From contig JANMPT010000025.1 in NCBI GenBank assembly GCA_031370005.1, positions 1-64,000 of the forward strand: DNA of 64,000 nucleotides, given 5' to 3'. Within the stretch, counting starts at the first letter, position 1, and each line of letters starts with the position of its first letter. Shown here one piece after another: positions 23,677-62,656 of the stretch. The translations under genes and the position numbers were made by a program. The notes below the pieces were generated by a model. The model saw only the letters and a list, made by a program, of their open reading frames with translations. It searched no databases and was not told the origin of the DNA. Origin of the DNA: Bdellovibrionales bacterium (lineage in GTDB: Bacteria; Bdellovibrionota; Bdellovibrionia; Bdellovibrionales; Bdellovibrionaceae).

Positions 23677-23714
23677 GCAAAACCCAAGCCTAATAAGTAC
23701 ATGGAGGTCTGAGT

Positions 23715-23981: not shown

Positions 23982-23998
23982 GTCAGGGCAGGGGTGAT

Positions 23999-25128: not shown

Positions 25129-25140
25129 GGGGATGAACGT

Positions 25141-26037: not shown

Positions 26038-26051
26038 GTAGAGGGGGATGT

Positions 26052-27551: not shown

Positions 27552-27604
27552 ACTGGCCTTATTTTAATGCGTGTATTCTCCGATAAGTGTTACGGAGGAC
27601 TCTG

Positions 27605-29782: not shown

Positions 29783-29796
29783 GAAGGAGTCACACA

Positions 29797-30675: not shown

Positions 30676-30705
30676 TTTCTATTGTTCTTCAAGGATGAGG
30701 TTCAA

Positions 30706-40606: not shown

Positions 40607-40612
40607 GGGCAT

Positions 40613-41578
40613 ATGAAAGACAATAAAGGTTTCTCCATTATAGAACTTAGTATTGCCATAGCTCTTTTGGGTATTGTTCTGCTCGCGTTTATGGACGTAA
40701 TGCAATACATGCGCATTATGGAAAACAGGGTTAAAATCCGAGCGGATTCACACACCTCTCAGACCCTGGGAGAGCGCTTTTTATGGATGGGGCTTAAAAA
40801 TGCAGCACCATCTTTTAATAATATTCCAATGCTTGATGACAATGGCTTTAACTTCTATGATCTCAACCGCGATGTCCCTTCGAATTCAATACCTAACGCC
40901 ACTCGAATACTGACTTTAAACTTAATCGGCGGGCAAACCACCTTTTTTGCTCTTTTGAGTGAATCCACTACGGCAAACGTGAGCAGTGGGGCTCCGGAGG
41001 TTATGTTTCTAGATCCTGCTAAGTTTTATCAAATTAATGATTTGGCCGCCCCAGCGGCAACGCCTTTTAATTGGACTTTTTTTAGAAACTATATCCTTGC
41101 ACAAAATCCGAATTTTTTGGCAAAAGCAACACAGGTATTAGAGATTTATGTTCCTTCCACATTTAGAAATATCGGGGCCCCAGTAAGTACAATGCCAAAC
41201 AGCACGAGCTATTTTTTGCGCTGTACGTCTTCTCCAACCCCTTGCAACACTGAAAATTTTGGCGGCATGGTGAGTTTCAAAAATGCTGCGGACAACACGG
41301 TTTCCATTGCCAATTTTGACGACTTCGTAAAAACAATACCGCCAGCCAGCGGAGGAATTCCGCCTATATTAGCTAGAGTGGTGCGCATGGTTCGCTATCA
41401 GTTGCAACCAAAGCCGTCTTACGCTACGGGTATTGGGGATTTATCTTATTCAACTTGGGATGGCGCTGGCTTTACTGCGCCGGTTTTAATTGCCGACCGA
41501 GTTAAACAGGTCGTTCTTCAAAGGCCTAATATCACAGATCCAACGATCACTATTGATTTAACTTTGGAAAAACGCTGA
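40613..41578 (+). CDS. Prepilin-type N-methylation domain protein (PilW-like)
   Basis: NKG|FSIIELSIAIALLG. Confidence 0.85.
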   Translation: MKDNKGFSIIELSIAIALLGIVLLAFMDVMQYMRIMENRVKIRADSHTSQTLGERFLWMGLKNAAPSFNNIPMLDDNGFNFYDLNRDVPSNSIPNATRILTLNLIGGQTTFFALLSESTTANVSSGAPEVMFLDPAKFYQINDLAAPAATPFNWTFFRNYILAQNPNFLAKATQVLEIYVPSTFRNIGAPVSTMPNSTSYFLRCTSSPTPCNTENFGGMVSFKNAADNTVSIANFDDFVKTIPPASGGIPPILARVVRMVRYQLQPKPSYATGIGDLSYSTWDGAGFTAPVLIADRVKQVVLQRPNITDPTITIDLTLEKR

Positions 41579-41599
41579 GGCCTTGGCTAGGGGAAAAGA

Positions 41600-43099
41600 A
41601 TGAAAAAACGAAGTGTTTTAGCAATTTTAATTCTTAGCTCAGCGCAAGTTTTTGCGGCCCAGGTATTGGTTCGTCCGAGTCAGGCCGGAAGAGCCACAGA
41701 TACGATGATTTTTTCAGATCAGGCGACCTCCTTTTCGGATCCTAATATGGGATTTCAGGTGCGCCTGAATGTCTCTTGTTTTCGAACAAATCTTCGAAGT
41801 GTGACAAATCCAATTTCGCCAACAGGGGCCGTAAGATTTGCCTTGAGTTTAAGTTCTGGCAATACTTTTTCGCTGGTATTTCCGGGTTGGTTGGTTATGA
41901 ATACCGGCGCAAATGCACAAGTTGTGACCCCGCCTCCTGTCGCCGTTGCTAACGGCACATATTATCTCACCGCCTCTGTTGATCCCCAGGATGTGCCCTA
42001 TGCGTACCCCGGCCCGGCTCAGCCTGTGCGAACCCGCTCTTTTGGAAACACGCTTATTTTTAACACGCCGGTTGGTTTCGTTTCTGGGGTACCCTTATCT
42101 GCTGCTGGTGACTATACCTACGCAAACTATGCCACTTTGATTCAAAGTGTCACTTTTGTTCAACAGGTTTCGAGTGTTGTTGGCCAGCAGGCAACTATCG
42201 TTAAGCTGGATCAGCCGCCGAGCTTAGCGCCATGGAAATTCCAGAAAATTTTTACGGCGTTAATGAGCCCACTTAACTGGATTTCATGGGGATCAGTTGA
42301 AGAGACTCATGCCGGGGGTGGGCTTCCGCTTATTGAGCCACCAGTTAGTTTAACCCTCTATGAAGACGTCGGATGGTATCAACCGCGCTTTGCCTGGTAT
42401 GCTCAAATAAGCTCGGTGCTGGCGGCAACCCCAGCAAATCCTTCGAATTACGTCCAAACCCCCAGTGTTGTGCAGCAATATATGGGGACGACGGGGCCAC
42501 TTACGGGAAGTTGGCAGGCGACTTGGTCCAACGATTTTAAGGTTTTAAATGTGAACGCATCATTTCCTGGGCAAGTTAATTACTGCGGCGGATTTTTTTC
42601 GCCACTGATGCTGTTTTTTGATTCTAAAGAGCCTCAGTTTAACCGCTTTGTTGATTTCAAAATGAGCAGTTATTCGGACCAAACCTATTGGCCAGAACCT
42701 GAAACTAAAGCCGCCTTTTTGGTGCTAGATAGAAATGGTGATGGGATTATCAACGATGTGACAGAGATGTTTGGCAGTGAGGACAGCTCTTTAAACGGAT
42801 TTGAGCTGCTTGCCGCTTTTGACGAAAACGGTGATGGCGTCATTGATGCAAAGGATCCGGTTTATTCTCAATTGCGCCTTTGGACAGACTCAACAGGAAA
42901 AGCAATCACTCTTAAGAAGGACTTGAAAACTTTGAAAGAGGCCGGGGTCGAGTCCATTTCTTTGAATTACAATAAGTCGGCGGTGCTGCCAATCGACAAT
43001 CGGGCCGAACTCAGGGAGCGTTCATCTTTTACCATGGTAAAAGATGGCAAGAGAACACAAGGTGAAGTCATTGACGTTTGGTTTGCTAACAAAAGGTAA
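41600..43099 (+). CDS. Secreted protein with C-terminal EF-hand (FrpC SPM-like) module
   Basis: Signal VFA; GGFFSPLMLFFD, DRNGDGIIND..EMFG, NGFELLA.FDENGDGVIDAKD..YSQLRLW.D, DVWF. Confidence 0.75.
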   Translation: MKKRSVLAILILSSAQVFAAQVLVRPSQAGRATDTMIFSDQATSFSDPNMGFQVRLNVSCFRTNLRSVTNPISPTGAVRFALSLSSGNTFSLVFPGWLVMNTGANAQVVTPPPVAVANGTYYLTASVDPQDVPYAYPGPAQPVRTRSFGNTLIFNTPVGFVSGVPLSAAGDYTYANYATLIQSVTFVQQVSSVVGQQATIVKLDQPPSLAPWKFQKIFTALMSPLNWISWGSVEETHAGGGLPLIEPPVSLTLYEDVGWYQPRFAWYAQISSVLAATPANPSNYVQTPSVVQQYMGTTGPLTGSWQATWSNDFKVLNVNASFPGQVNYCGGFFSPLMLFFDSKEPQFNRFVDFKMSSYSDQTYWPEPETKAAFLVLDRNGDGIINDVTEMFGSEDSSLNGFELLAAFDENGDGVIDAKDPVYSQLRLWTDSTGKAITLKKDLKTLKEAGVESISLNYNKSAVLPIDNRAELRERSSFTMVKDGKRTQGEVIDVWFANKR

Positions 43100-45410
43100 G
43101 AGCTTTATAAAAGGCAATATAGAGGAAATTCGCGCTTCACCGGCACTGCGAAAATATGGTTTTTTTCTATCATTCATTCACTTTTTCACATTTGCATATT
43201 GGTTTTCTTATGCAGATATCTATAATCTAATCAGCCGGGCGACGCCAGCTTTTTGCCAGCCCTTCTTTCAGTCCTGTGAAGTTTTTCGCTTTGGCACTCC
43301 TGAACTTTGGCGCTGGATTCTTGTGGCCTATTTTTTGGCTGGACTGCTGAGCTCTGCACTGTGGTTAATGGGCTTCATTCGCTGGGCCTATATAGCCGCG
43401 CTGGTACTGTTTCTTTTTAAGTTTTTTATTTATATTCAGGATTATCGTTTAACGGACAGCTATCATTATATTCATTTTCTTTTTCTTTTTCTTTTTTTGT
43501 TCGTTCCCCGAAAGCTCAAAATTATTCCCTTTGCCATTGTTTTAATATATTGGGTGGCGGGAATTCAGCAACTCAATATGGGATTGAGTGGCATAAGATG
43601 GACGACGGCTTATGTTCTTGTTTTGGAATTATTTTTCTCTACTTTGCTGTTAAGCTCAAAGCCCTTCTGGCAAAAGTTCGCACTCATTCAGTTTTTTATT
43701 TTTCATATTTATTCAATCCAATTCGTTGGGCTGTTTTATCCTGCCGTCATGCTTTGTGTACTGAGTATTTTCATTCCTATGTTTAAAGCCAAGAACGCAG
43801 CCCCTGGGTTATCAGAAATTTGGCACTATAAGCCGCATCGCAATTTGGTCTTTCTTTTTATTTTGGCACAGCTCTATCCCGTAGTCCTTCCCGGAAAGGC
43901 GGCCTTAACCGGGGAAGGTCGTTTGCTCGCATTAAATATATTTGCTTCGCGAGCCACCTGTCGCCATAGTTTTGTGGTTGAGATGGGAGCAGGCCGATAC
44001 CAGCAACTTCAGATCCGCACAGAATCAATTGGTGCCGGAATTCGTTGCGAGCCCTATCTTTATCTAGAGTTCGCGCGTCGGCTTTGCGAAGACTTTGCCC
44101 ACGAGGGCAATCCAGCCATAGTGGATATTCATTTGCAGAGTCGGTTGAGCAGCGAAAATAACTTTAGTCCGATTGTGGATCAAAAAAATATCTGTCAAAG
44201 TAAGATTCGCTTTAACCCGCTCTTTAGCAATTCTTGGATTGAAAAAGGTGAACCCGCCACGGAAGAAGTCACTCCGTGGTTTTATCAAAATGCAAAAATA
44301 GAAGCCTCAGATGATATCTTTATGTATCGTGGGGATGCCCAACGCAGCGGAACGGTTTTAACAAAGGAACTCATTCATCCCCTGAGCCGGCCTTTTTGGC
44401 GTAAGCCGAACTGGAATGCCTCCGCTCTCTCTGTAAGTAAAAGTTCAGCAGTTTCCGATGGCAAGGCGGTTTATGTCGGCTCGGATCAAGGATATTTTGC
44501 TGCGGTCGATAGCACCGGGAAAGAGTTTTGGCGTTGGATTATGACAGCTAAAAACGGCGTTCTTGGCAGTGCGCTTATTGCTGGGGATTCCGTTTTCTGG
44601 GGGGACGCTGCGGGGATACTTTATTCAGCACAAAAAAAAACTGGTGCATTAAATTGGCTTTTACCTATAGGGCGAGCCATAGATTCCTCGCCGCTTTATG
44701 ATGATGGCTTTATTTATGTGTCAGTTACCGGCGTCTTCCCAGAGGATGGATTTGTCGCCAAGGTCGATGCGCGTACAGGAAAGCTTTTATGGAAAAGCCC
44801 TTCCCTTGGCGATCAAGTGCAGTCTTCACCAGCGCTTTCTGAAGACGGCAAGCTTGTTTTTGTCGGCTCAAATAATGGGTATCTGACGGCAATAGATAAG
44901 CAAACAGGAAACTTTGTTTGGCGTTATGGGGCAGGTCTAGCAATTAAGGGAACGCCCCTGGTGGCAGCAGGCTCCGTTATTTTTTGCTCCTGGGACCAGA
45001 ACCTGTATCGTTTAAATTCTACTACTGGTGAACTTATTTGGAATGCGCCTCTGGAAAGCGACTGCCAAAGTTCAGCGACCTGGTCAAAAAAAGAAAACGC
45101 AATCTATATAAGTACCTTGGATGGTGCCACATCCGCATTTGATTTTAGTACTGGAAAAGAGCTTTGGCAGCACCAGGGCAGTGGCAGTTTTTTATCTAGT
45201 CCAGTTTTATTGATAAAAAATAGTTTAGAATCCACAGAACAACTTTTGGCGAGTTGTTTTGAGCAGGAGCTTTGTATTTTCAATTCAAAAAATGGTAGTA
45301 TTAAAAGGAAAATAAATCTTGGTGATCGCTTAAGTTCTGTTCCTTGGATAAATAATGGGGAGCTGATTTATACGTTAGATTCGGCGGGGGGGCTTGTTCA
45401 GTGGAAATAA
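43044..45410 (+). CDS. HTTM-like membrane domain fused to PQQ-like (BamB-type) beta-propeller
   Basis: About 8 TM segments with QDYRL, Y..AG, FH..S..VG.FYP, ALTGEGRL; C-terminal MYRGD..RSG and SSP/W propeller repeats. Confidence 0.72.
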   Translation: MAREHKVKSLTFGLLTKGKSFIKGNIEEIRASPALRKYGFFLSFIHFFTFAYWFSYADIYNLISRATPAFCQPFFQSCEVFRFGTPELWRWILVAYFLAGLLSSALWLMGFIRWAYIAALVLFLFKFFIYIQDYRLTDSYHYIHFLFLFLFLFVPRKLKIIPFAIVLIYWVAGIQQLNMGLSGIRWTTAYVLVLELFFSTLLLSSKPFWQKFALIQFFIFHIYSIQFVGLFYPAVMLCVLSIFIPMFKAKNAAPGLSEIWHYKPHRNLVFLFILAQLYPVVLPGKAALTGEGRLLALNIFASRATCRHSFVVEMGAGRYQQLQIRTESIGAGIRCEPYLYLEFARRLCEDFAHEGNPAIVDIHLQSRLSSENNFSPIVDQKNICQSKIRFNPLFSNSWIEKGEPATEEVTPWFYQNAKIEASDDIFMYRGDAQRSGTVLTKELIHPLSRPFWRKPNWNASALSVSKSSAVSDGKAVYVGSDQGYFAAVDSTGKEFWRWIMTAKNGVLGSALIAGDSVFWGDAAGILYSAQKKTGALNWLLPIGRAIDSSPLYDDGFIYVSVTGVFPEDGFVAKVDARTGKLLWKSPSLGDQVQSSPALSEDGKLVFVGSNNGYLTAIDKQTGNFVWRYGAGLAIKGTPLVAAGSVIFCSWDQNLYRLNSTTGELIWNAPLESDCQSSATWSKKENAIYISTLDGATSAFDFSTGKELWQHQGSGSFLSSPVLLIKNSLESTEQLLASCFEQELCIFNSKNGSIKRKINLGDRLSSVPWINNGELIYTLDSAGGLVQWK

Positions 45411-46717
45411 TCCAAAAAATTACAGTGCCAGCTTTGGTTTTCGTGCTACTAACGTCCCTGGGAGCAGTTGCGGGTGAGGCAAAGACGGCGACCTGCTCGT
45501 CTCAAAATGCTGAAAAATTCGTCCAGATGATTAGTATAAAATTTTGGAGAATGATTAAAAATGAACCGGTAACGCTTTACATGATGGATCTTGATAAGTG
45601 TTTTGTGGTCGGGCAAAAAATAGAAATATTTGAAACGAAGGTGGAAAATGGCCAAGTTTATTGGAAGTTTTCCCGGGGAACGGCCAAAGTTCAGAGCATA
45701 GAGAAAATTAACTTTGCGACATATAACAAAAGAGAATTAGGAAAGGCTGTTGGCCAGGAGCTCGAAATCTTCAAAAAAAAACTTATCAAATATACTGGAA
45801 AAAATGGCGCGGAGCTTGAGGCGGCACCTCTTCTTGCATTGACTATCGTACGTGACAAGTTTGAGGATCGGCTGACGGCCTATGGAAGTCCGCGGCGCCA
45901 CCCGGCCGCGAAATCTTTCAATAAAAGAGAGTTTGTAGAGGAACTGAATCAAGGCCATGTTTATGATGTTCGCCCCTTGTCATTAAAGAAAGAGTTTCCT
46001 TTAAATAAGGCAAAAAACTTGGTTTTCACAAATTACGCTTGGGTCACCCAAAAAATTCTTTCACCATTGCAGATAAAAAAAACAAAAGCGAACTTCACGG
46101 GCCTCGTGCTGCCACAGAAAAAAGAAGATCCTGTATATATAATTTCCGGATGCACGGGTGAGTTTTCAGCATACAATGCGCTCACGCTTTTAGCCTCAAA
46201 GGGCTATAAAAACCTTGGATGGTTTCCGGGTGGCATGGCAGAGTTTGGGAAGAAGCCTCATCCCTGCATAACTCCGGATAAATTATCAGAGGCTACGATT
46301 GTACAGGCTGCAAAGGTGCGGGAGCTTATCAAAGAAAAAAATATTTTCATTGCAGACGTCCGAGAACAGGCAAGGTTTACTTTAGTTGGCGCGACCTCGT
46401 TCCCGTTTCTGGAAAAAAGAAATGCACTTTCAATTCCGACCTACCGTGACAAAGTGACTGCGGCAGGGCTTGTCTCGAATAAAGAGATTTATTCGAATGA
46501 GTTCATGTTGTCTATTCCAAAGGAAAGCACGATTCTAATCGTTGGTGACAATGAGTATGATTGGAGAGCCTATAAGGCCGCCATCTTTTTAAAAGCAAAA
46601 GGGGTTAAAAATATTTATTGGTATCGGGATGGCATGGAGGACTGGGCGCAAAAAGTCTTATTTTATCCAGCGGAGTATACTTTAAACAGAAAGACCAAAA
46701 ATGGAGAACTCTATTGA
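45401..46717 (+). CDS. Secreted tandem rhodanese-domain protein
   Basis: Two DVR...AY.A...GY/VKN..W..GM.EF/DW units; signal peptide. Confidence 0.78.
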   Translation: MEIIQKITVPALVFVLLTSLGAVAGEAKTATCSSQNAEKFVQMISIKFWRMIKNEPVTLYMMDLDKCFVVGQKIEIFETKVENGQVYWKFSRGTAKVQSIEKINFATYNKRELGKAVGQELEIFKKKLIKYTGKNGAELEAAPLLALTIVRDKFEDRLTAYGSPRRHPAAKSFNKREFVEELNQGHVYDVRPLSLKKEFPLNKAKNLVFTNYAWVTQKILSPLQIKKTKANFTGLVLPQKKEDPVYIISGCTGEFSAYNALTLLASKGYKNLGWFPGGMAEFGKKPHPCITPDKLSEATIVQAAKVRELIKEKNIFIADVREQARFTLVGATSFPFLEKRNALSIPTYRDKVTAAGLVSNKEIYSNEFMLSIPKESTILIVGDNEYDWRAYKAAIFLKAKGVKNIYWYRDGMEDWAQKVLFYPAEYTLNRKTKNGELY

Positions 46718-47628
46718 AACTCTTTGTAATCGTCATTTTATTAATAGGCGTTCGGGCTCAAGCAAAAGGTCAAGAGCTAGTTTGGATTGTGGCTCCGGCG
46801 ATTTGGAATGGGACAACTCCAGAGCTCGACAAGGGCTTGAAGAATCTCGAAAGATATCTTGAAAAATCATTGGATAAGCCGGTTAAAGTTGAATTGAAAA
46901 CCACCCCTGGCTTTGTCTTAAGTCAGTATCTTAATTTGAAAAAAGAGCTTATAACCAAGCAGCCAGATTATATTTTTTATATTGAGTCCACGCGGTTTTT
47001 TGCAAATGATCTCGAAGAGATTCTGTTGTCGAAGAACCTACCTGAGCAAGCACTTGTGGCAGACAAGTTTTCTGATTTAGAAATTTCTAAGGCACAGCCA
47101 AATTGGGCGAAAACACTTTTTCCAGACACAAGTTTTTTTATGCCAATTAAAAAGGCGCTCTTCATGGACAAGCGTCTCAGAGAGGACTGGGCCCCCGCGA
47201 ATGTACCGAACAATGAGGCCGAACTTTTCCTTAACACAAGCGTGTTCGCTTACGAGCAGCTTCAACATCTTTTAAAAGACAAAAAGCGCCTGGTTTTTCT
47301 TTTTTCTGCGGAGAATCTTCATTATTCTCAAGAAATTTTTTCTGGGACTGAGTTGAAGAGTTCCTTAGCACAGATCTTTTTTAAAGGTGTTAACCTTGAA
47401 TCGGATTTTTTAAAAGAGTTTATTAACTATAGCGTGATTAACTTCAATACGACCTTTCTTCCGCCTGGGTTTAAAAAACTCTCCCGGACTGAATTCCTTA
47501 TGGCGGGCTCAAGGCAAGTTTTGAATTCCGTAGGAGTCCAGCGCAGCTTTCAGATTTTAAAACCGATAATTTCCAGCCATATGAAAGCTGAGGAGAAAAC
47601 AAAATCGCCCGCAAAAACTAAACGCTAA
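46714..47628 (+). CDS. Secreted hypothetical protein (possibly degenerate SGNH-like)
   Basis: TTG start overlapping the previous stop with GGAG RBS; AQA signal; KQPDYIF. Confidence 0.55.
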   Translation: MKLFVIVILLIGVRAQAKGQELVWIVAPAIWNGTTPELDKGLKNLERYLEKSLDKPVKVELKTTPGFVLSQYLNLKKELITKQPDYIFYIESTRFFANDLEEILLSKNLPEQALVADKFSDLEISKAQPNWAKTLFPDTSFFMPIKKALFMDKRLREDWAPANVPNNEAELFLNTSVFAYEQLQHLLKDKKRLVFLFSAENLHYSQEIFSGTELKSSLAQIFFKGVNLESDFLKEFINYSVINFNTTFLPPGFKKLSRTEFLMAGSRQVLNSVGVQRSFQILKPIISSHMKAEEKTKSPAKTKR

Positions 47629-47726: not shown

Positions 47727-48386
47727 ATGATTTTTAAGTCTGTTAAAGATGGTTGTTTGCTTGATGCATCTAACAGCATGTACCCGAGTGTTTTAAGGGG
47801 ATTCGACCACGGAGAAGAAAGCTTTTCACTGCCAACAAGTACATATTTTGGCTTCGTGGTAAATGGGAATTATGAGCTTCATCGTCAAAATCAGCACTTT
47901 GCGACACTTCAAACAGGAATGTATTTTTCCGCTACGGGACCTTTTACATTAAAAGGCAAAGGCGAAATGATAGTCATCGAAAGGTTGGGCTATCGTGGAC
48001 TTATGCAATTCGGTGGCCCCGTCGAGGAAGTCGGACGTCTGTGTTACATCGATAACTCCAATACCACGATGATTTTGCCGCCGCCAAGGATGGGCGACCC
48101 TGTTTTTAATCTGCTCGTATTTCCCCCTAAGGTGATACAAACACCACACATTCATCCCACGGTTCGTTTGGGCGTTGTTTATGAGGGCGAGGGAGAGTGT
48201 ATCCTGCCAAATCAAAAGCCATTAGCTTTGAAGCCAGGAATTGCATTTTTGTTAGCAGAAGGAGCAGTTCACTCATTTAATTCTTTTGATAAAAAACTTA
48301 AGATTATTGCATTTCATCCGGATTCAGATACGGGCCCAACGGATGCCTCGCATCCGATGTTGAATCGGACTTATACGAAAATTTAG
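47727..48386 (+). CDS. Cupin-domain protein
   Basis: QTPHIHP.VRLG.V..GEG and H.F metal motif; GGPVEE.GRL.YID. Confidence 0.85.
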   Translation: MIFKSVKDGCLLDASNSMYPSVLRGFDHGEESFSLPTSTYFGFVVNGNYELHRQNQHFATLQTGMYFSATGPFTLKGKGEMIVIERLGYRGLMQFGGPVEEVGRLCYIDNSNTTMILPPPRMGDPVFNLLVFPPKVIQTPHIHPTVRLGVVYEGEGECILPNQKPLALKPGIAFLLAEGAVHSFNSFDKKLKIIAFHPDSDTGPTDASHPMLNRTYTKI

Positions 48387-48709
48387 GCTTTATTTTTTTT
48401 AGCACCGGCTCGTTTTATATTTTCTTGACCGCGAGCCTTTGCATTCGAGCCCACCACGAGTCCATACTTTTTAACAAGTATGGACTGCAGGCTATCGAGA
48501 TTTCGAAAATAGTTAGCCTTTAGATCGCCATAATCAAAGACAATTCCAAAGCGCTCTTCGAAGACATTCACCATCTGAATGACGGAAAAAGAGTCTAAAA
48601 TACCTTCTTCAAAAAGGTCCATCTTGGAGTGAAATTCGCGATCCCTAATGCGCGGGTTTACCTCGCGAATTATTTTTTTCAGGATATTTAAATTAACTTT
48701 TTTTGCCAC
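48383..48709 (-). CDS. Acyl/aminoacyl carrier protein (DltC-like)
   Basis: DLFEEGILDSF phosphopantetheine site; EERFGI. Confidence 0.88.
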   Translation of the reverse strand: MAKKVNLNILKKIIREVNPRIRDREFHSKMDLFEEGILDSFSVIQMVNVFEERFGIVFDYGDLKANYFRNLDSLQSILVKKYGLVVGSNAKARGQENIKRAGAKKNKA

Positions 48710-49265
48710 CGACAGCCTTCCTTTCTCTGTTCATTACCGAGTAGACGCCGAGATTGACGTTTAACTGCAGGTAATTATAGAAGTCATCGACCTGCGATAT
48801 AGAGTGGATTGAATCCAATTTGTCATAAAATTTTTTTAAAAATACTTTTATTCTTTTTAACAAAATTATTTTTTCTTCGGCCACAAAGAGCCAGTATTTT
48901 TTAAAGTTAGTATCACTTATTGGCGTCTTTTGAAGTGCTTCATTGGAAAAGCTTGATTTGATCTCCTCTTTCATGATTTGAATGCTCGTGAGAAGCAAGA
49001 CGGAGACCTCTAGTTTTCTCTTTAAAAGAGCAAGCCTTTCCTGGTCTTTTTTTGTTAAGGTTGGGGAGGCCGTTTGAAAACCCTTTAGCGGATCATAGGT
49101 ATGATAGAGGGGTTTTATTCCGGAGACGTCAAGTTCGGTGCTTAAAGCCTGAACATGAACTCCCTTAAGCGGGGTGAAAAAATTAAATTTAATGCTTTTT
49201 TTCACAAAAAGGACTCGGTCAGTTTTTATATCAGTATAAATGAAAAGCTTAAGTCTTTCTGACAT
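48693..49265 (-). CDS. Hypothetical protein (putative partner of PP-loop enzyme)
   Basis: Overlaps both neighbours; GGAGG RBS. Confidence 0.6.
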   Translation of the reverse strand: MSERLKLFIYTDIKTDRVLFVKKSIKFNFFTPLKGVHVQALSTELDVSGIKPLYHTYDPLKGFQTASPTLTKKDQERLALLKRKLEVSVLLLTSIQIMKEEIKSSFSNEALQKTPISDTNFKKYWLFVAEEKIILLKRIKVFLKKFYDKLDSIHSISQVDDFYNYLQLNVNLGVYSVMNRERKAVGGKKS

Positions 49266-50295
49266 AAGCCTCCAACTCTTCAATTGAATTTACTTGGCGA
49301 AAGTGAGAATCAACAGCGATTCGTTTTTCACTTAAGACATAAGTTTTTTCCAAGCTTTGAATTTTGAGCAAGTCATGCTGCCTTTGGTCCAATGTAAAAT
49401 CCGCGATAAATTTTTTTGCGACATGTTTATAAGATTTCCAGGTATTTTTAATTTTTAGGTCATGATTGTTCAGACTCCACCGCTGAAAGTCTACACTATC
49501 GTAAAAGTGAAGGATGTGACTTCCATATTTCGCTTCAAGGCACCAATCTTTATTTTCATAGAATCGATACTTTACATGCTGCCATTTTTGAGAAAAATTC
49601 AGCCACCAAAAAAAATCATGAGTAGTTTTGATTGGAAATGGGGCCTCGCTGACAATGGGTAAAAAATGCTCGAAAATTTTTCTCCCAGATGTTTTAACCC
49701 CGGTGTAGGCATCAATAACTTGTGGGCAATAATCTAAGTAGTTTTTGCTTAAAATCTCGTCGCCGAGCACTTTACATCCGGAAGCTAAAATGTCAGATCC
49801 AAATAACTGATCGCCAAGTTCGCCTGTAACCAAAAGAGCTTTGTTCGTCATCAACATTTTTGAGATAGGCAGAAGTGAGTTTATTAAATTAAACCGAGAA
49901 ATATACTTATCAAAAAAAGAAGGATTCTCCTCTACAGAGTGATGCGACAGCACGACCGAAATTTTTTTAAGTTCATTTGCAGGCCAGAATTTCAGAACAG
50001 AAGACATCATGTTGGTGCTGTCGATGCCACCACTATAAGCAAACCAATAGTTGTCAAAATTATATTTTAAAAGATTAAGCGCGCGATCCGCGCAGCAGTC
50101 CTCCCATGTTTTGGAAGAGGTCTGTTTGGTCAATTCAGAGATCGGTTCGGCTTGAAGGGAAAAGTTAAAAAGATCCGGTTTATAGGTCAGCCGGCTCACT
50201 GTCTTATCAAAGGGATCAAATAGCACAGCGGATTCTGAAATAATGCTTTTAAGGCTTTGGCTAGTTTTGATGCTGAGACTTAAAAGTTGTTTCAT
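49249..50295 (-). CDS. PP-loop ATPase, asparagine-synthetase-like, no glutaminase domain (paralog 2)
   Basis: YSGGIDST; VTGELGDQLFGS. Confidence 0.78.
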   Translation of the reverse strand: MKQLLSLSIKTSQSLKSIISESAVLFDPFDKTVSRLTYKPDLFNFSLQAEPISELTKQTSSKTWEDCCADRALNLLKYNFDNYWFAYSGGIDSTNMMSSVLKFWPANELKKISVVLSHHSVEENPSFFDKYISRFNLINSLLPISKMLMTNKALLVTGELGDQLFGSDILASGCKVLGDEILSKNYLDYCPQVIDAYTGVKTSGRKIFEHFLPIVSEAPFPIKTTHDFFWWLNFSQKWQHVKYRFYENKDWCLEAKYGSHILHFYDSVDFQRWSLNNHDLKIKNTWKSYKHVAKKFIADFTLDQRQHDLLKIQSLEKTYVLSEKRIAVDSHFRQVNSIEELEAYVRKT

Positions 50296-50299
50296 ATAG

Positions 50300-51409
50300 T
50301 TAAAAGGGCGCATCCTTAAAGCTGTTCTTTGGATTGTACCAGTCTTTTCTGGGCAGACTTGCATACATTTTCATTTCGTCATCAATAAAGTTCTTCTGAA
50401 TTTGATGCATTATGACCCAGGTCAGAGACCCATTTTTTGTCTTATAGTCTCTATAGTGACTATCTTTGTTAAACCTATAGATGACTTCTTTTGCCTCCCA
50501 CTTGTAAGATTCCCAAGTGGTTATGACTCTCTTGTCTGGGTTGTTCATGGACCAAAGCTGAAAATCTTCAGTACCAAAAAAATGGAAAAAATAATTTTCG
50601 ATAAAATCGGTATCAATATTATGAGCGGCAAAATCTGATGTGTATGTCAGCATTCTGAAGTAAACGGATTGCCACTTAAGCGAAAAGTTAATCCACCACA
50701 AGAAATCCGCATTGGAAGAAACTGGGCATGGTGCCGCTGAGTAAAGGCGTTCAAACAAATCCATATACCAGGAGACAGCGGTCGGATCATGTAATTTTCT
50801 TCCGAACATTTTACTCATCTTCTGGCGATTGTATTTTGTCTTAGCGGCGTTTTCTCCGAATAGATCCATAAAATCCTTGAAAAGCGCCGAACCAAAAATT
50901 TGATCGTTATATTCCCCTCCGACAAAGAGGGCTTTTTTTGATAGAATATATGGATAGATCGCGGCGGCCTCCAGCTTTACTTTACCGCGAAGATGATCCC
51001 TATAAAAATTAGGATTTTCTGCAATCGACTCTTGTGACAACAAAACGCAGATGCGCTCTTTCTGTGCAGCACTGGCGTTTTTAAGCAAGGAAACCAATAC
51101 CAGGGTTGAATCAATGCCCCCAGAGTAAAATGTATAAATGGGCAGACCCTGCTTATCAGAGCGCTTTAGCAATTCAACCGCCCGCTCATCACAAATTTGC
51201 TCATAAGTCTTATCCAGTTTTCTGAATTCAGGTAGGGGCGAGTGAATTTTAACGTTCACAGGGACTTGGATTGTGTTTGTCCTGTCAATCAGTACAACAT
51301 TGTCATTGAAAAGCAGAAAGGTCTGATGAAAAGCACGAATTCCGGGCAGCTCTTGCAGCCTTTTTGCGGTGATGACCATGGGGTTGTACATGTAAATATT
51401 TTTAGACAT
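50300..51409 (-). CDS. PP-loop ATPase, asparagine-synthetase-like, no glutaminase domain (paralog 1)
   Basis: YSGGIDST; VGGEYNDQIFGS. Confidence 0.78.
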   Translation of the reverse strand: MSKNIYMYNPMVITAKRLQELPGIRAFHQTFLLFNDNVVLIDRTNTIQVPVNVKIHSPLPEFRKLDKTYEQICDERAVELLKRSDKQGLPIYTFYSGGIDSTLVLVSLLKNASAAQKERICVLLSQESIAENPNFYRDHLRGKVKLEAAAIYPYILSKKALFVGGEYNDQIFGSALFKDFMDLFGENAAKTKYNRQKMSKMFGRKLHDPTAVSWYMDLFERLYSAAPCPVSSNADFLWWINFSLKWQSVYFRMLTYTSDFAAHNIDTDFIENYFFHFFGTEDFQLWSMNNPDKRVITTWESYKWEAKEVIYRFNKDSHYRDYKTKNGSLTWVIMHQIQKNFIDDEMKMYASLPRKDWYNPKNSFKDAPF

Positions 51410-52100
51410 GCGAATTTAAGTAATACTCCCGGATAAAGTCCTGAAAAATTTTATTATTTTCCTCAATAGTCGCTGCATTTGAAATCAAGTCGAAGTACTT
51501 CAATTTAATTTCCTCTGTTTGCCATAGCGCCGCCTCAAATAGTCCAAAGTGAAAAATAATCTCATCAGCGGCCTCTCTTGAACTTATTTTTTTAACTTGG
51601 GCGTATTGAAACACGAACAAGTAGTCTTTAACCTGCTCTTCGTTATAGCCCGACTTTCGAAACGCCAGAGCCTGCTCCCTGCGCATGTAATCTACGAGCT
51701 CGCCGTATTTTTCTGAATGTGCGACCCGCATTCTTGATTGTGTTATCACGCGGGAAACTCGCTGGAGGTTCTTTACCCGAGCCGTCAAAAGCAAACTGTT
51801 TTTTAGTTGCTGCTCAGTTGGGGGCCGGCTCTTCGTTATTTTTACTACGGCTCCAGATTGTCGATGATAAAGGAAGCTCAACAGCTCCTCAGGCGGTAAC
51901 GTCAGCAAGTCTGCGGTGCGAACCTTGGAGTGAAGTATGGGCTTGCCGCCAGGGATGAGGTTAAACCCCATCTCCATTTGCGAAGACATTAAGGCCAATG
52001 CAGCGCTAGTAAATGGAGTGACGCAGAGTATGCGTTTTGACTTGAGATGCCACAAAATACAAACGTTTCTTCTTGGTAAGGGCTCATCAATTTCAATCAT
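51402..52100 (-). CDS. Hypothetical protein (putative partner of PP-loop enzyme)
   Basis: Overlaps the downstream PP-loop gene; helical C-terminus EQALAF..GY...QYA...AADEII. Confidence 0.65.
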   Translation of the reverse strand: MIEIDEPLPRRNVCILWHLKSKRILCVTPFTSAALALMSSQMEMGFNLIPGGKPILHSKVRTADLLTLPPEELLSFLYHRQSGAVVKITKSRPPTEQQLKNSLLLTARVKNLQRVSRVITQSRMRVAHSEKYGELVDYMRREQALAFRKSGYNEEQVKDYLFVFQYAQVKKISSREAADEIIFHFGLFEAALWQTEEIKLKYFDLISNAATIEENNKIFQDFIREYYLNSHV

Positions 52101-52146
52101 ATGACAGTCAGTGTCTCAAGATTAATTTTGATGAGCAATTGAAAAA

Positions 52147-53610
52147 CTACTTCCGAGCTAAAATGGTCGTGAAGTGATAATAGGCATTGATAATGTTCAC
52201 ATCACAAAATCCGATGTTTTCGAGTTCACTCATGTACCAGCTTAGCGGATAGGGGTCGAGAACTCCCCTTATGGCCTCAGCTTTATCTTTTATTTGTTGC
52301 TCACTGATGCCATTTTTTCGTTTAAAATCATGATACAGATCTAGGATAAATGGATTCCCCTGCATCTTATCCGATATAATCAGAAAGCCACCAGGCGCTA
52401 ATCCGTCATAGATATCTTGAAGGTATTCTTTGCGCGCCTTCACGAAGTGCAGGGTCCAATTTGCGCAGACCAGGTGAAAGGGCGGCTGGCCCTGGGGAAA
52501 TGTGTCCGACAAAATAACATGATCTTGGTGCATGGAGTTCTTAACCATCGACTCAGATTTTTCAACGCCCCAGGTGTCTAGAAAACCGGCCTTGATAAAC
52601 TCATCCATGGTTCGACCAATTGCTGAGCCAATGTCTAGAACTCGACAATTCTTTTTAGGATAAGCCTTACTTGCAATTTCAACGCACATACCAATAACCT
52701 CTTTGTATCGAGGAATTGACGTTAGCGCGATTTTTTCGAAATCTTTTGAGACCTTTTCGTCGAACGTCCATGAGCCGGTCCGCATTTTTTTTCCGGGCGT
52801 GTATTGAACAAAATCTTCTCTTGGAAGCGTGAATTTTCCACTTTTTAGTTCAGCGGCCAAGTCTTCAACCTTCGCCCCACTTTTTTTAAATCGCATCATA
52901 AATCGAACGGGCATCTGCCATCCTGGCATGATTTCATTAAAGGCATCATGGCGTCCCTTGATACGCGCCGGACTTATAATGCCTTCAGGGCAGGTGAAGC
53001 CGAAGTGCGCCATCACCATTTTTAGACCGCCAGGGCTGATGCGGCTGCCGATGCCTCGAGCCCTCTCTTGTCCGTTCGGCAAGGTGATGCTTTGTTTGGG
53101 TGAGAACTCAACGTAAGGGACCTCGACATTAATAGGCTTCTGCGGCAGAATTGACTCTATAAGAACCCATTCTTTCGCCGCATAACTCATCTTTTCAAGA
53201 ATGGAAAAGTAATCCAAAAATACAAACAAAACTCCGGCCATGAGAACGATGTCATACTCGTCCTCTTTAACTTTCTCAAGAAAGTCGGAGATCTCGGATT
53301 TTACTAAACGAAACTGGTCTTTTGACCAGTGTTTGCTAAGAAGAGCTTTAGATTGTTTAAGATATTCGGATTGGATTTCAACTCCGGTATATTTTTTAGC
53401 GCCATAGGACAGACACCAGTGCCCTGTCGCCCCAAGACAAGAGCCTAAATCTAAAACTTTTTTACCCTTAATGATCCACTCGGGCAACAAAGCCCCATGT
53501 TTTGCCTCGAGGGTTTCTTTTGTAACAGGCACCACAGGCCTGTGATTTCTATTATCATTTAAAAAAAAACCGGGCTCAATTTCAAATGGAGACTTTTTTT
53601 TTGCAGCCAC
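52147..53610 (-). CDS. Didomain SAM-dependent enzyme: N-terminal CmoB/DUF1698-like transferase plus C-terminal CmoA-like carboxy-SAM synthase domain
   Basis: Two motif-I sites (VLDLGSCLG; VLDIGSAIG); C-domain WTFDE, SIPRY, NWTLHF, IYDGLAPGG.LIISDK, HDFKRKNG.SE..I..K. Confidence 0.8.
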   Translation of the reverse strand: MAAKKKSPFEIEPGFFLNDNRNHRPVVPVTKETLEAKHGALLPEWIIKGKKVLDLGSCLGATGHWCLSYGAKKYTGVEIQSEYLKQSKALLSKHWSKDQFRLVKSEISDFLEKVKEDEYDIVLMAGVLFVFLDYFSILEKMSYAAKEWVLIESILPQKPINVEVPYVEFSPKQSITLPNGQERARGIGSRISPGGLKMVMAHFGFTCPEGIISPARIKGRHDAFNEIMPGWQMPVRFMMRFKKSGAKVEDLAAELKSGKFTLPREDFVQYTPGKKMRTGSWTFDEKVSKDFEKIALTSIPRYKEVIGMCVEIASKAYPKKNCRVLDIGSAIGRTMDEFIKAGFLDTWGVEKSESMVKNSMHQDHVILSDTFPQGQPPFHLVCANWTLHFVKARKEYLQDIYDGLAPGGFLIISDKMQGNPFILDLYHDFKRKNGISEQQIKDKAEAIRGVLDPYPLSWYMSELENIGFCDVNIINAYYHFTTILARK

Positions 53611-53615
53611 GAGTT

Positions 53616-53912
53616 CTACCCCTGATTCGACGTAATGTTTTTGATTTTTGGCCTAGCCTCACTCAAAATGCACCGAAAAATTTTCTGCATAGAGTCCTCG
53701 GAAAGAGGGCCCTGACATATTGACCGAACTTTTGAAAAAATAGCGTTTTCTCTAGTAGGATCAATCAAAGGGAGTTGATTGTGTTGCTTTAAGAGCCAGA
53801 CTTCTTCTACAAGTGCCGCGCGTTTATTCAGCGCAATAGCAATTTGCGCATCGAGCTGGTCAATTTCATTTCGAAGTTTTTTTAAATCTAGCGCTGTATT
53901 CCAGTTTCCCAT
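53616..53912 (-). CDS. Chorismate mutase (AroQ type II)
   Basis: L.KLR.EID.LD.QI...LNKR...V..LK....D.TRE..I; ATG at 53912 with RBS. Confidence 0.88.
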   Translation of the reverse strand: MGNWNTALDLKKLRNEIDQLDAQIAIALNKRAALVEEVWLLKQHNQLPLIDPTRENAIFSKVRSICQGPLSEDSMQKIFRCILSEARPKIKNITSNQG

Positions 53913-53987
53913 TCTCTTCCTAAGGTTAGGCTTAAATATTACAAGTTTTACAGCAAAACACCAAGCCAAATTCAGTTGGGACCTAGA

Positions 53988-55364
53988 CTATCCAAACAGG
54001 TGCTGGAGTTGCATGAGCCAGCTATGCCAGTTGGTACTTAAAATAATCGCAAGGATAATAGTCGATATTTGTAATACGTAGGTAGTAATAACAGAGGCCC
54101 ATGGCGTCCAAATCGAACGGTTATTTGACCATTGGAAAAACCAATACCTTTGAGTTATATACAACAATAGAAAATGAAGAAAAAATAAAATGACAGAATA
54201 GCGCAAGTCTGGATTTCTATAAATTCCACCATGAATGTCAGACCCGGCCCAATTTAAAATCATAATGCCGACGTCGAAGACGCCATTTTTCATGATATAA
54301 AAAAAGAAAAAGCAGACGAAAGTTACAATGAATCGACTTCGGATTAATCGCCAAAGTCTTAGAAACAGATATCTATTGATAAACTCATAATGATAAACGC
54401 TGCCACGCCGCCAGTATTCAGCAGGAGTTCTCGCTAGCCATGAAAAACTAGTTGCATCCCGTACGCGATACCCAAACAGCCTGGCAACACCGGTAATGAC
54501 ATTGAAAGCGCCGACATCAGATAAGATGAGCAGTACATACTTAACCGTGGACTTTACCAAAATATTTCCTGAACGATCCAGGCCCGCCTTATCCAATTGC
54601 ACTTTTAGATATATGATCAGATAGCCAAGGACAACGCCCCAAAAGCCTTTCCACCAAAACTGCGCTATCGCTGGGCGGTTTTTGCGCGCAAGTACCGTGA
54701 CCACGGGCCAGAGCACGCCATGGGTCGCCGTTGCTGGGTTATAAGCTAAAAAAGGATCCACAGGGCGCGGTGAGTAAGCATAGGCCAGCTGAATTGCGAC
54801 GAGCACCATATACTGGAGTTTAAATTTCCAGAAAAGCAGTAACATAGAAAACTCTTCTAAAGCATAGAGCCTGCCGCTGATATAGAGCCACGAAAACGTG
54901 AAATAACCGAGCAAAACAAGGACCCACGTTGCTCTCGTTTGTTGTTTCCGACGGGCGGTCCCAATATAATAGGTGAAAATGCTGTTCAAAGGCAGGAGGA
55001 GGGTAATCAGAACAAAAACATCAATGGGGACTTTGCCTAAGAAAAATATATAACAGTTTAAGCCCCAGGAAAGCATAGTTACGAGAGCACTATACCAGCC
55101 TCTAGCCGTGCCCTTGAAAAAAATCGAGATTCCGGCGCAAGCAAATAATAAGGGCATCACAAACCGGCTTTGTCTCACAAAGGGAAACATTCCAAACGGC
55201 TGTAAATGGGTGTTCATTTCCAAAATCGATTTAATCCAAAGAGCCATGAGAACTAATATGATTGCGGCGAAGGGAGTTGCCCACTTTAGACGGGCGCCAC
55301 AATATTCAGATAGTCGAACTTCAAAGCGTCGGAGATAAATTTCAAGCTGAGCCGGTGAAATCAT
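53988..55364 (-). CDS. MBOAT family (DltB/AlgI-like) membrane protein, divergent
   Basis: Multi-TM; ARLFGY, WLARTPAEYWRR...RYLF. Confidence 0.72.
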   Translation of the reverse strand: MISPAQLEIYLRRFEVRLSEYCGARLKWATPFAAIILVLMALWIKSILEMNTHLQPFGMFPFVRQSRFVMPLLFACAGISIFFKGTARGWYSALVTMLSWGLNCYIFFLGKVPIDVFVLITLLLPLNSIFTYYIGTARRKQQTRATWVLVLLGYFTFSWLYISGRLYALEEFSMLLLFWKFKLQYMVLVAIQLAYAYSPRPVDPFLAYNPATATHGVLWPVVTVLARKNRPAIAQFWWKGFWGVVLGYLIIYLKVQLDKAGLDRSGNILVKSTVKYVLLILSDVGAFNVITGVARLFGYRVRDATSFSWLARTPAEYWRRGSVYHYEFINRYLFLRLWRLIRSRFIVTFVCFFFFYIMKNGVFDVGIMILNWAGSDIHGGIYRNPDLRYSVILFFLHFLLLYITQRYWFFQWSNNRSIWTPWASVITTYVLQISTIILAIILSTNWHSWLMQLQHLFG

Positions 55365-60540: not shown

Positions 60541-60589
60541 AACTGGTTGAAACTCTAGATTAGACATGCAATCTCCGAGAAGAGTTTGC

Positions 60590-61474
60590 ATGAAGGCACA
60601 ATCGCAAAATCAATTTAATTATGCCCTCGCCTTTTCAAGAAATTTGGGATGGCTGACCGAGGATGAGCAAGGCGTAATTGCACAAAAAAAAGTAGCGATT
60701 GCTGGCATGGGAGGCGTTGGTGGCCACTATGCTGAAGTCCTTGCGCGGCTTGGGGTCGCTAAGTTTCATATTTCAGATTTTGATGAATTCGAAGTCCAGA
60801 ATTTTAATCGTCAGAACTGCAGTGGGCTTAGCACTCTACACAAAAAAAAAGTAGAAGTGATAAGAGATAAAATTTTAGATATTAACCCCTTGGCCGAGGT
60901 CACAATCTTTAATAGGGGTGTGAATGCAGAAAATGTCGAATCCTTCTTAGACAGTGTCGATCTTTATCTTGATGGTTTGGATTTTTTCGTTATCGACATA
61001 AGGCAACTTGTGTTTGCAGTGGCACACCAAAAAAAAATTACGGCGATAACTATAGCGCCAGTTGGTATGGGCGCGTCCCTTGTTGTGTTTGATCAAAATT
61101 CAATGAGCTTTGTTGAGCATTTTGGTATGAAAAAAAATGATTCTTTGGAAGTATTGGCAATTAAATTCTTAATTGGACTTACTCCGACACTAAAGCAATT
61201 AAAATACCTAGTCGATCGAACGCGGACAAATTTTAATGAGAAAAAAGCGCCGTCGCTACCGATGGGGCCTTATTTATGCGCCGGTGTTGCTGGAAGCGAG
61301 GCCGTCAAAATTTTATTAAAAAGAAAAAAAATTAGAACCTCTCCTTGGGTTTTGCATTTTGATGCATATTTGCAAAGTTATAATAAAACATATTTATGGT
61401 GGGGACATAAAAACGTATTTCAAAAAATTAAATTCATAATCATTAAAAATATTTTAGGACGGCACTCTCGGTAA
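60590..61474 (+). CDS. ThiF/MoeB family adenylyltransferase
   Basis: AFSRNLG, IAGMGGVGG, DFD.FE..NFNRQ, DGLDFF. Confidence 0.9.
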   Translation: MKAQSQNQFNYALAFSRNLGWLTEDEQGVIAQKKVAIAGMGGVGGHYAEVLARLGVAKFHISDFDEFEVQNFNRQNCSGLSTLHKKKVEVIRDKILDINPLAEVTIFNRGVNAENVESFLDSVDLYLDGLDFFVIDIRQLVFAVAHQKKITAITIAPVGMGASLVVFDQNSMSFVEHFGMKKNDSLEVLAIKFLIGLTPTLKQLKYLVDRTRTNFNEKKAPSLPMGPYLCAGVAGSEAVKILLKRKKIRTSPWVLHFDAYLQSYNKTYLWWGHKNVFQKIKFIIIKNILGRHSR

Positions 61475-61577
61475 ATTGTCTGATTCGTCTTAAGCAAGCA
61501 ATGACTGGTACTCATGGTCAGAGTGATAGTGCTGTTTCATTTTGACGGGAATATCTGGCAACTTCAGAGCCCTTGCC

Positions 61578-62246
61578 TCAAAACTGAAGGCGTAGCAACA
61601 GTCGGTCGGCGGTCTCTTCATCAATTAAAACAAATCGTTTTAATTCTGGTTCATAGGTATAAACATCAGCTTTTGCAATGTCGAACCACCAGCCGTGCAC
61701 GGCCAAGGTGCCCTCCTTAATCCGTTTTTGAACTGGTGGATAGGACTTTACATGCTCGATTTGAAGCAAGACATTCAGTTGAGATAGTTGGTTGTGAACC
61801 GCTAAACTTGAGTCAAGCGTCGTACCAGACATTAATTGATTAAAGGCTGGGTCGCCATGGCGAAGCCAGCTTTTTAAATTTGGCGTCGCAATGTTGTTAC
61901 GATTACTAATAAGTGCCCGCATTGCTGCGCACTCAGAATGACCACAAACGATAATATCTGAAACGTTTAAACTTAGAACAGCATACTCGATTGCAGCAGC
62001 TTCGGACTCATCGCTAGATGAGATACCATGCTTGTCACAAGGGGGAATCAAATTGCCGACGTTTCTTAAAACGAATAAGTCCCCTGGATTTGTCGACGCA
62101 AAGGTGTTGGGCACAACACGGCTATCAGAACATGCAATGAAGAGTGTGTCAGGCGACTGTCCAGTTGCTAGACGGCCGAAGGACTCTCTATAGCCCTCTT
62201 GAACTTTACGTCGAAACTCTACGATTCCTTGGATTAGCTTTCTCAC
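61578..62246 (-). CDS. Beta-class carbonic anhydrase
   Basis: CSDSRV, RNVGN, CGHSECAAM. Confidence 0.95.
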   Translation of the reverse strand: MRKLIQGIVEFRRKVQEGYRESFGRLATGQSPDTLFIACSDSRVVPNTFASTNPGDLFVLRNVGNLIPPCDKHGISSSDESEAAAIEYAVLSLNVSDIIVCGHSECAAMRALISNRNNIATPNLKSWLRHGDPAFNQLMSGTTLDSSLAVHNQLSQLNVLLQIEHVKSYPPVQKRIKEGTLAVHGWWFDIAKADVYTYEPELKRFVLIDEETADRLLLRLQF

Positions 62247-62359
62247 GGAAGAGGAAGCTAGCGCATTTTATAGACAAGGTCTATGATTTTATGTCATTAC
62301 CTAGCGTACACCTGCGTTGACGGACGCAGAGTGGTCTAGAGAATTACAGAATCCACGAC

Positions 62360-62557
62360 TTATCGCGCCGTTGTTCTTCCGGGCTTACTTGTCGGATTCT
62401 CCTTTAAGTTTATTCTTCTGTGGCTATGGCCGTGACTGTGGCCCGGGTTTTCTTCGGGGTTTAGAAATCGAGAGGCAGCGGGCTCTGTAGACGCGGGCTT
62501 TATTACGGATTTCTTAGTTTTGCGTTTAGCCTTTGTTTTTTTTGCTGGCGTTTTCAT
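62360..62557 (-). CDS. Small basic hypothetical protein
   Basis: GAGGAG RBS; Lys-rich; GHSHGHSH. Confidence 0.55.
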   Translation of the reverse strand: MKTPAKKTKAKRKTKKSVIKPASTEPAASRFLNPEENPGHSHGHSHRRINLKENPTSKPGRTTAR

Positions 62558-62656
62558 TGGGAAACTCCTCGTTTTTTAGTAGTTGAAAACACGAGTAAGT
62601 ATAAATTAAAAGTGACGTTGTGAAATGATATTCCAGCGAAGTTGCAAAAAAACAAG

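Follow-up and report, generated by a model that had tools for sequence, protein, structure and literature searches.

In this study, we analyzed the first 64 kb of contig C81 from a Bdellovibrionales genome (3.2 Mb, 99.79% complete; this whole stretch of 64,000 nucleotides is called the window hereafter), and focused on a minus-strand operon at 48383..55364 whose eight co-oriented open reading frames (ORFs) are tightly packed or overlapping. We found that this operon is real but composite: a four-gene core, which comprises an MBOAT-fold membrane protein, a PP-loop enzyme (PP2), a 190-aa partner protein and a serine-bearing acyl carrier protein (ACP), is combined with accessory genes that include a second PP-loop enzyme (PP1) and its own 232-aa partner. 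Comparison with related clusters suggests that the missing ANL-type ligase has been replaced by PP2 and its partner in a new carrier-loading route. That PP2 itself loads the ACP is a tentative reading, whose chance we put only slightly below even.

The four genes recur together. A partner gene, an ACP gene and an MBOAT-family gene were found in all nine PP2-clade loci with enough context (the window, G004, G006, G034, G472, G476, G477, G576 and the metagenomic L080; duplicates counted once), all of them Bdellovibrionota or metagenomic, and on a tenth contig (L079) an MBOAT gene was followed by the start of PP2 at the contig end. Since seven of these nine loci had been used to build the PP2 profile, the evidence of recurrence is partly circular; G477 and G576 were absent from the profile. 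G576, from another family, came from a scan of 384 genomes, and its protein P0142 was placed in the PP2 clade by the tree before its gene context was seen; the contig reads MBOAT-PP2-partner-ACP. Among 182 genomes of the window's family, 19 had a PP-family match and 21 an MBOAT-profile match, and the same seven genomes were at the top of both lists (MBOAT-profile match <1e-60 and PP2 match <1e-130). The PP2 clade had a support of 99 in a quick tree (Shimodaira-Hasegawa-like approximate likelihood ratio test, SH-aLRT), and both the PP2-linked MBOATs (support 92-93) and the PP2-linked ACPs (89) formed clades that left their ANL-linked relatives outside. MBOAT identity across the core loci was 24-66%, spanning two families, and the gene order of the core varied (G472). 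In G576 (L348:5309-8381), the minimal core lies after genes for a carbamoyltransferase, a 62-aa membrane peptide and a 344-aa GDSS-motif protein; the last is SGNH-like by eye, had no Pfam match and hints at an envelope acceptor.

The distribution of ligases was compared with that of the PP-loop genes in 17 other MBOAT-profile loci that were fetched. An ANL ligase was present in 13 of them, the remaining four being short contigs without one, and none of the 17 had a PP-family gene. By contrast, eight of the nine PP2 loci had no ANL in the fetched stretch, some of these contigs being short (5.5 kb for L080 and 13.5 kb for G576). The nearest sister clusters combined a DltA-like ligase and an ACP with pyridoxal phosphate (PLP)-decarboxylase-like genes and a desaturase, and the ligases of several sister clusters scored best to DltA or amino-acid adenylation models. 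A search for cluster conservation had been proposed as a check in the original prediction for this operon; it revealed that the PP2-ACP-MBOAT linkage is conserved and, among sister clusters, nearly exclusive with a DltA-like ligase. The replacement was probably a single evolutionary event rather than nine, because the loci are kin and not independent. The exception is G472, with two ACPs, two MBOATs, one ANL and one PP2; this locus (L059:1096-16501) has an ANL-type and a PP2-type carrier/MBOAT unit back to back within a flagellar gene region, and reads most simply as two parallel relays, one ligase serving both being also allowed. Seven Bdellovibrionota sister clusters with a DltA-like ligase, an ACP and a divergent MBOAT (L340, L342-L344, L179, L181 and L182, from G440, G529, G534, G532, G286, G047 and G290) also carry, in combinations that vary, genes resembling PLP decarboxylases, desaturases and ATP-grasp enzymes. 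An unlinked ligase shared among the PP2 genomes was considered and rejected: the ANL gene 12 kb away from the cluster in G476 has a FabH-like gene (as read from the sequence) for a neighbor, its counterparts in G004 and G034 are unlinked, and the window's genome has no counterpart above 32% identity.

The inventory of ligases in the window and its genome was consistent with this pattern. As originally predicted, no match to AMP-binding, ketosynthase or phosphopantetheinyl transferase (PPTase) families was found among the scanned window ORFs (GroEL/GroES, short and alternative-frame ORFs left out). The whole genome contained five AMP-binding genes and one PPTase gene, all on contigs other than that of the operon. 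The five ANLs were closest to FadD, AcsA, FadD11, OleC-like and MenE models, with AcsA having the best amino-acid adenylation score, and no dedicated, DltA-like ligase was detected in this 99.79%-complete genome. The sole PPTase was Sfp/HetI-like and unlinked to the operon. Two ACPs were found genome-wide, the operon ACP and another, presumably AcpP, that scored much higher. The operon ACP matched Pfam PP-binding at 22.8 bits (cut-off 20.8), and its best NCBIfam match was DltC, with a score of 30 vs an equivalog cut-off of 68. The serine of its D-S motif is kept and invariant. A Lys-rich C-terminal tail (48383-48450) occurred only in the three same-genus genomes.

Both PP-loop proteins were asparagine-synthetase-like, in agreement with the original prediction. 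PP1 and PP2 were 30% identical (E 7e-39), and SGGIDS and GE-x-x-DQ-x-FG were present in both. The PP1 model (predicted local distance difference test, pLDDT, 93.9) had an AsnB-type synthetase-domain fold and matched TsnB9 (Z 13.2), beta-lactam synthetase (12.2), ASNS (12.1) and CarA (10.9); from its identity to PP1, PP2 is predicted to be an AsnB-fold PP-loop enzyme as well. PP2 carries invariant SGGIDS, DQLFG and K-x-Q-S-L motifs, and it shares the D-Q-x-F-G motif and the late Lys. The N-terminal glutaminase domain was absent from both proteins (348-369 aa), the structural matches of PP1 starting at about target residue 126-174. No match was obtained for the window's PP-loop proteins in Pfam Asn_synthase, for PP1 alone in a PDB sequence search (0 matches), for PP1 or PP2 in PHROGs, or for PP2 in a plasmid search. 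The 232-aa and 190-aa partners were distant homologues: direct hhalign comparison gave E 5e-4 and 1e-3, and comparison via intermediate partners gave probabilities of 91% and 97% (ten column-shuffled controls, <=0.2%). Thus, these two hypothetical proteins mean that the operon has two enzyme-partner pairs.

The 458-aa protein has an MBOAT fold. Its AlphaFold2 model (pLDDT 84.7) matched PORCN, MBOAT7 and DltB at Z 15-18 (15.5 for DltB), and the 24 best rows of the fold search were all MBOATs (Z 10.6-18), the next row being at Z 7.0. A profile that included canonical MBOATs (alignment A8) matched DltB at E 1e-18. Pfam MBOAT matched none of 14 family members, the window's protein included, and a PDB sequence search with this protein alone gave no match. 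His289 and His336 are active-site residues of DltB (PMC11035591). In a sequence alignment, rather than a side-chain superposition, the corresponding columns appeared to be Ser322 and Lys359 in the window's protein. The second position was Lys/Arg in eight of ten PP2-linked MBOAT copies and His in the other two (G472 and L080). Of the original prediction, the MBOAT fold and the presence of an ACP were supported, and "Dlt-like" catalysis was not.

The accessory genes showed a different distribution. PP1 and its partner were inserted in four of the nine core loci, and chorismate mutase (CM) and the gene for a fusion of a methyltransferase (MT) and a CmoA-like domain in three of nine, all of one genus. 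An opposite-strand DAHP synthase gene lies between MBOAT and CM in two same-genus genomes (G004 and G006), which means that transcription of all eight genes as a single unit is not conserved. The PP-loop family is large (1,569 clusters at 50% identity), and the PP1 homologues (n=666) were mostly from Candidate Phyla Radiation (CPR) bacteria and uncultured phages. In a context survey of 68 genome and 125 viral PP-family loci, the 232-aa partner profile matched 25 and 79 loci, respectively. An MBOAT-family gene was near PP genes in four of the 68 genome loci, which were Bdellovibrionota PP2 loci, and in none of the 125 viral loci; an ACP was found in five genome and two viral loci, the three beyond the MBOAT-bearing ones being weak matches. 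The original prediction, which would fail if homologous PP-loop genes were not linked to ACP and MBOAT, thus fails for PP1, whose family mostly lacks this linkage. Because PP1 and its partner are common in CPR bacteria and phages that have neither ACP nor MBOAT there, they are a mobile module that needs no carrier protein, and the candidate for ligase replacement is PP2 rather than both PP-loop enzymes together. An obligate pair was also rejected since PP1, in a different clade from PP2, was in only four of nine core loci; joint action of the two PP-loop genes had been proposed, but linkage to ACP and MBOAT holds for PP2 only (9/9). PP1-type genes were accompanied by cupins, solute symporters and propeller fusions. 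A cupin was near the core in G004, G006, G034, G472 and G477 and also near PP1-type genes in CPR and phage loci; it travels with both modules. In large uncultured phages (L081-L159, L257-L258), PP and partner genes occurred among desaturases, radical SAM enzymes, dioxygenases and symporters, with two to four PP paralogues in some phages, and islands of the same kind were seen in some Bdellovibrionota (L197, L309, L313).

Based on these observations, we propose the following model. The core would descend from a Bdellovibrionota MBOAT-ACP cluster, the remaining members of which rely on a DltA-like ANL ligase, and PP2 with its partner would have taken the place of that ligase. The ACP would be primed by the unlinked Sfp-type PPTase. 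By its fold and motifs, PP2 may adenylate a small carboxylate with ATP, and the gene replacement pattern suggests that it could pass this carboxylate to the phosphopantetheine thiol of the ACP. By analogy with DltB/DltC, the acyl-ACP would dock on the MBOAT-fold protein, which, working without the catalytic His that is usual, might carry the group to the inner membrane or through it and on to an acceptor in the envelope. PP1, its partner, the MT/CmoA-like fusion, the cupin and CM would form a module that moves separately. One genus has it inserted in the core, and one other genome has PP1 and its partner there; the module may tailor the substrate and would be dispensable. The citrate-lyase ligase CitC is a precedent for loading by PP2. 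LarE is a known PP-loop enzyme that attaches sulfur to a carboxylate (PMC8584467). The fuller version of the model, in which an AsnB-fold enzyme and a partner from a phage/CPR family form a thioester-forming carrier ligase that feeds a Lys/Arg MBOAT and modifies the predator envelope, is more doubtful than loading by PP2 as such.

Several points weigh against the proposed loading by PP2. N-type ATP pyrophosphatases canonically use ammonia or an amine as the nucleophile, not a carrier thiol (PMC6594144), and the top fold matches of PP1 are all amide or lactam synthetases. PP2 retains all family invariants, clade-specific columns number only six, and the wider PP-loop family exists without any ACP; in the closest sisters of the PP2 clade (G446 and G522), the partner is present and no ACP was found in the fetched stretch. 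PP2 also occupies the place of more than a ligase, since the ANL-type clusters have decarboxylase-like, ATP-grasp-like and desaturase genes there as well. The ANL of G472 is 0.5 kb from the ACP of PP2, and unlinked A-domain-like genes occur in the PP2 genomes G034 and G576. On the membrane side, the window's MBOAT-fold protein, judged by alignment, lacks both DltB active-site histidines, and a DltD/AlgJ-like partner was not identified in the window. Finally, besides the seven of nine loci that built the profile, eight genomes are from one order and related loci are not independent, and for the MBOAT and ACP clades, support was given by unstarred SH-aLRT values of quick trees with long branches flagged.

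In the main competing reading, which we consider less likely than loading by PP2, PP2 would be an amide synthetase whose substrate is an acid or amine tethered to the ACP; it would amidate or N-acylate the tethered group, and export of the product would fall to the MBOAT-fold protein. The ACP would then be loaded by a housekeeping route, such as malonyl transfer from fatty-acid synthesis, acyl-CoA with an Sfp-type PPTase, or a FadD/AcsA-type ligase, and the genome does have unlinked ANLs and a PPTase. This alternative is favored by the fact that ammonia is the canonical nucleophile of the class of PP2; it matches the canonical chemistry of the AsnB fold and accounts equally for the PP2-ACP-MBOAT linkage and the clades, and OxyD-type malonamyl-ACP formation is a precedent. 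Moreover, G337 has a classical glutamine-dependent AsnB-like gene (from its N-terminal sequence) with ANL, ACP and MBOAT, and therefore AsnB-type genes do accompany carrier/MBOAT clusters that have a ligase. However, it leaves unexplained why a dedicated ligase is absent from the fetched stretch of eight of nine PP2 loci and present in 13 of 17 other clusters, the five ANLs of the genome resemble housekeeping families, and PP2 has no glutaminase domain. Less probable is that the MBOAT-fold protein, instead of being an acyltransferase, is a His-less channel, scaffold or sensor for a product that is ACP-bound or made by PP2, or that ACP and MBOAT are a decaying relic beside an independent pair of PP and partner genes. 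The apparent replacement of both DltB active-site histidines, the variable gene order (G472) and the PP-partner pairs without ACP or MBOAT across CPR bacteria and phages would agree with this. On the other hand, the four genes are intact in 9/9 loci from two families with 24-66% MBOAT identity, the ACP serine is invariant, and at the second position G472 and L080 retain His while a conserved basic residue replaces it elsewhere, all of which speaks against this reading.

The original prediction had also raised the possibility of a carboxymethyl-derived substrate. In this scheme, CM would supply prephenate, the CmoA-like domain would make carboxy-SAM (carboxy-S-adenosylmethionine), the N-terminal MT domain would carboxymethylate an acceptor, and PP1/PP2 would activate the carboxylate for amide formation or ACP loading. 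CM adjoins the CmoA-like gene, DAHP synthase is beside CM in two relatives, prephenate is a CmoA substrate (PMC10491745), and in the phage CmoA-CmoX-CmoY system an AsnB-like amide ligase acts on a carboxymethyl handle (PMC12783734). MT/CmoA-like fusions were close to partner and PP1-type genes in three phages (L113, L132 and L137), and an MT/CmoA-like gene was also near PP1-type genes in some CPR loci. However, CM occurred at this position only in three same-genus genomes, and CM and the MT/CmoA-like gene were absent from six of nine core loci, so a carboxymethyl substrate cannot belong to the core. The CmoA-like domain matched NCBIfam CmoA at E 6e-27 with a score of 94.8 vs a cut-off of 193.3. 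Arg199 of Escherichia coli CmoA binds the carboxylate (PMC3663124); this position was Ala in the window's domain, with an Arg four residues later, and was not Arg in any of nine PP-associated homologues. Of two phage CmoAs used as controls, that of PaBG has Arg and the SPbeta-like one has Ser, so this position is not decisive. The idea that the PP family is CmoY was rejected, as PP1 matched the PaBG asparagine synthase only at E 0.42 and gave one weak match in 50,697 cultured phage records. No DNA methylase or C5-DNA methyltransferase family match was found among the operon genes. The scheme, at most a description of the accessory module, is thus the least probable of the readings weighed here, and we retain loading of the ACP by PP2 as the working model.

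The eight genes are bracketed by MBOAT and the ACP as originally predicted, which was verified by the ORFs, the fold of the 458-aa protein and the Pfam PP-binding match (Table 1). Gaps within the operon are 4, 5 and 46 nt and overlaps 8, 14 and 17 nt. Between MBOAT and CM there are 18 nt with the longest CM start (the ORF is extendable to 53969) or 75 nt with ATG 53912. The starts of PP2, the 190-aa partner and CM in the table are corrected, probable ones, that of CM having been read from the sequence.

Table 1. Genes of the operon and the convergent cupin gene (positions in the window)
Feature	Module	Length (aa)	Position (strand)	Basis
MBOAT-fold membrane protein	core	458	53988..55364 (-)	AlphaFold2 model, fold searches, profile alignment
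AroQ chorismate mutase (CM)	accessory	about 98, from ATG 53912	53616..53912 (-)	Pfam CM_2, E 2e-20
Two-domain SAM methyltransferase + CmoA-like fusion	accessory	487	52147..53610 (-)	NCBIfam CmoA, PDB CmoA alignment, homologue alignments
Helical partner of PP1, unnamed family coupled to the PP-loop family	accessory	232	51402..52100 (-)	Profile matches, adjacency, alignment
PP1, stand-alone AsnB-synthetase-fold PP-loop enzyme	accessory	369	50300..51409 (-)	Model, fold matches, homologues, tree
PP2, PP-loop enzyme of ACP-linked clade	core	348	49249..50295 (-)	Identity to PP1, motifs, clade, linkage
Partner of PP2	core	190	48693..49265 (-)	hhalign to 232-aa partner family
Acyl carrier protein (ACP), Ser40 in D-S motif	core	108	48383..48709 (-)	Pfam PP-binding, alignments
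Cupin, convergent, overlaps ACP end	associated	219	47727..48386 (+)	Pfam Cupin_2

The operon is neighbored at 43044-47628 (+) by genes for a protein with a membrane domain and an AASDH/ACSF4-type beta-propeller (152.7 bits, cut-off 133), a rhodanese-repeat protein and a 336-aa protein. This group also adjoins the operon in G004 and G006, and propeller fusions are additionally found on the flanks of the core in G034 and of PP1 loci in CPR bacteria. The propeller protein's membrane domain, at its N-terminus, had no Pfam match and may resemble HTTM. In the promoter/terminator scan, only the groEL terminator (55520-55489) stood out, and promoter-like sites in the sequence were as frequent as expected (17 found vs 16.6 expected). 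No tRNA and no meaningful repeats were detected. Elsewhere, the window contains YD/RHS-repeat ORFs, each followed by a small ORF (1-1494 and 30682-32358, +), an AbiEi/AbiEii type IV toxin-antitoxin pair (3137-5144, +), a Tad/Flp pilus cluster (20555-30675, +) and a second pilin-like cluster with an N-methylation motif (37437-43099, +). The region 60566-64000 encodes a ThiF-family protein (PRK08223 above cut-off), a carbonic anhydrase and a 5'-truncated fusion of a sulfatase-modifying factor and a methyltransferase.

If PP2 does load the ACP, the AsnB fold would be added to the small number of folds that acylate carrier proteins, and such pathways would be overlooked by genome mining in which an ANL or A domain is demanded. 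Phosphopantetheine ejection from the ACP offers a mass-spectrometry handle on a large uncharacterised PP-loop and partner family of uncultured phages and CPR bacteria, and the His-less MBOAT is a test of whether the catalytic His is required in the MBOAT superfamily.

Among the closest known systems are Dlt teichoic-acid D-alanylation (DltA/DltC/DltB/DltD/DltX) and related envelope-acylation clusters with a ligase, an ACP and an MBOAT, with which the core shares a Ser-bearing carrier and an MBOAT-fold membrane protein; a DltA-like ligase is present in sister clusters of the same phylum. Unlike Dlt, the core has an AsnB-fold enzyme and a partner instead of an ANL ligase and apparently Ser/Lys at the His289/His336 positions, and its host is Gram-negative; no DltD or DltX family match was found among the operon or flanking ORFs, divergent homologues being possible. 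Thus, the core is a Dlt-type relay in architecture but not a Dlt system, as the ligase and, by alignment, the catalytic His are lacking. With the AsnB family (AS-B, beta-lactam synthetase, carbapenam synthetase and TsnB9, and also the lasso cyclases), PP1 shares the fold (Z 9.6-13.2) and the window's PP-loop proteins share the SGGxDS PP-loop, a GE-x-x-D motif and an invariant C-terminal Lys; they differ in that identity is 9-14%, that both a glutaminase domain and a Pfam Asn_synthase match are absent, and that a small helical partner is coupled to them, with one clade linked to an ACP. The accessory module resembles phage CmoA-CmoX-CmoY hypermodification (PMC12783734) in having a CmoA-like gene near an AsnB-like ligase, but it has no C5-methyltransferase, PP1 is not CmoY-type and the Arg199 position is not Arg. 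Amino acid:carrier protein ligases, which resemble class II aminoacyl-tRNA synthetases, acylate a carrier with a non-ANL fold (PMC2922099). Like these, BioW and LarE have non-ANL folds that activate a carboxylate for a thiol or carrier, as proposed for PP2. None of them, nor CitC, is an AsnB-type synthetase domain that loads an ACP for an MBOAT. In the literature covered, which excluded most subscription papers and all supplements, no description of a unit of an AsnB-fold enzyme, ACP and MBOAT was found. Therefore, the four-gene core is apparently an undescribed variant of Dlt-type acyl relays.

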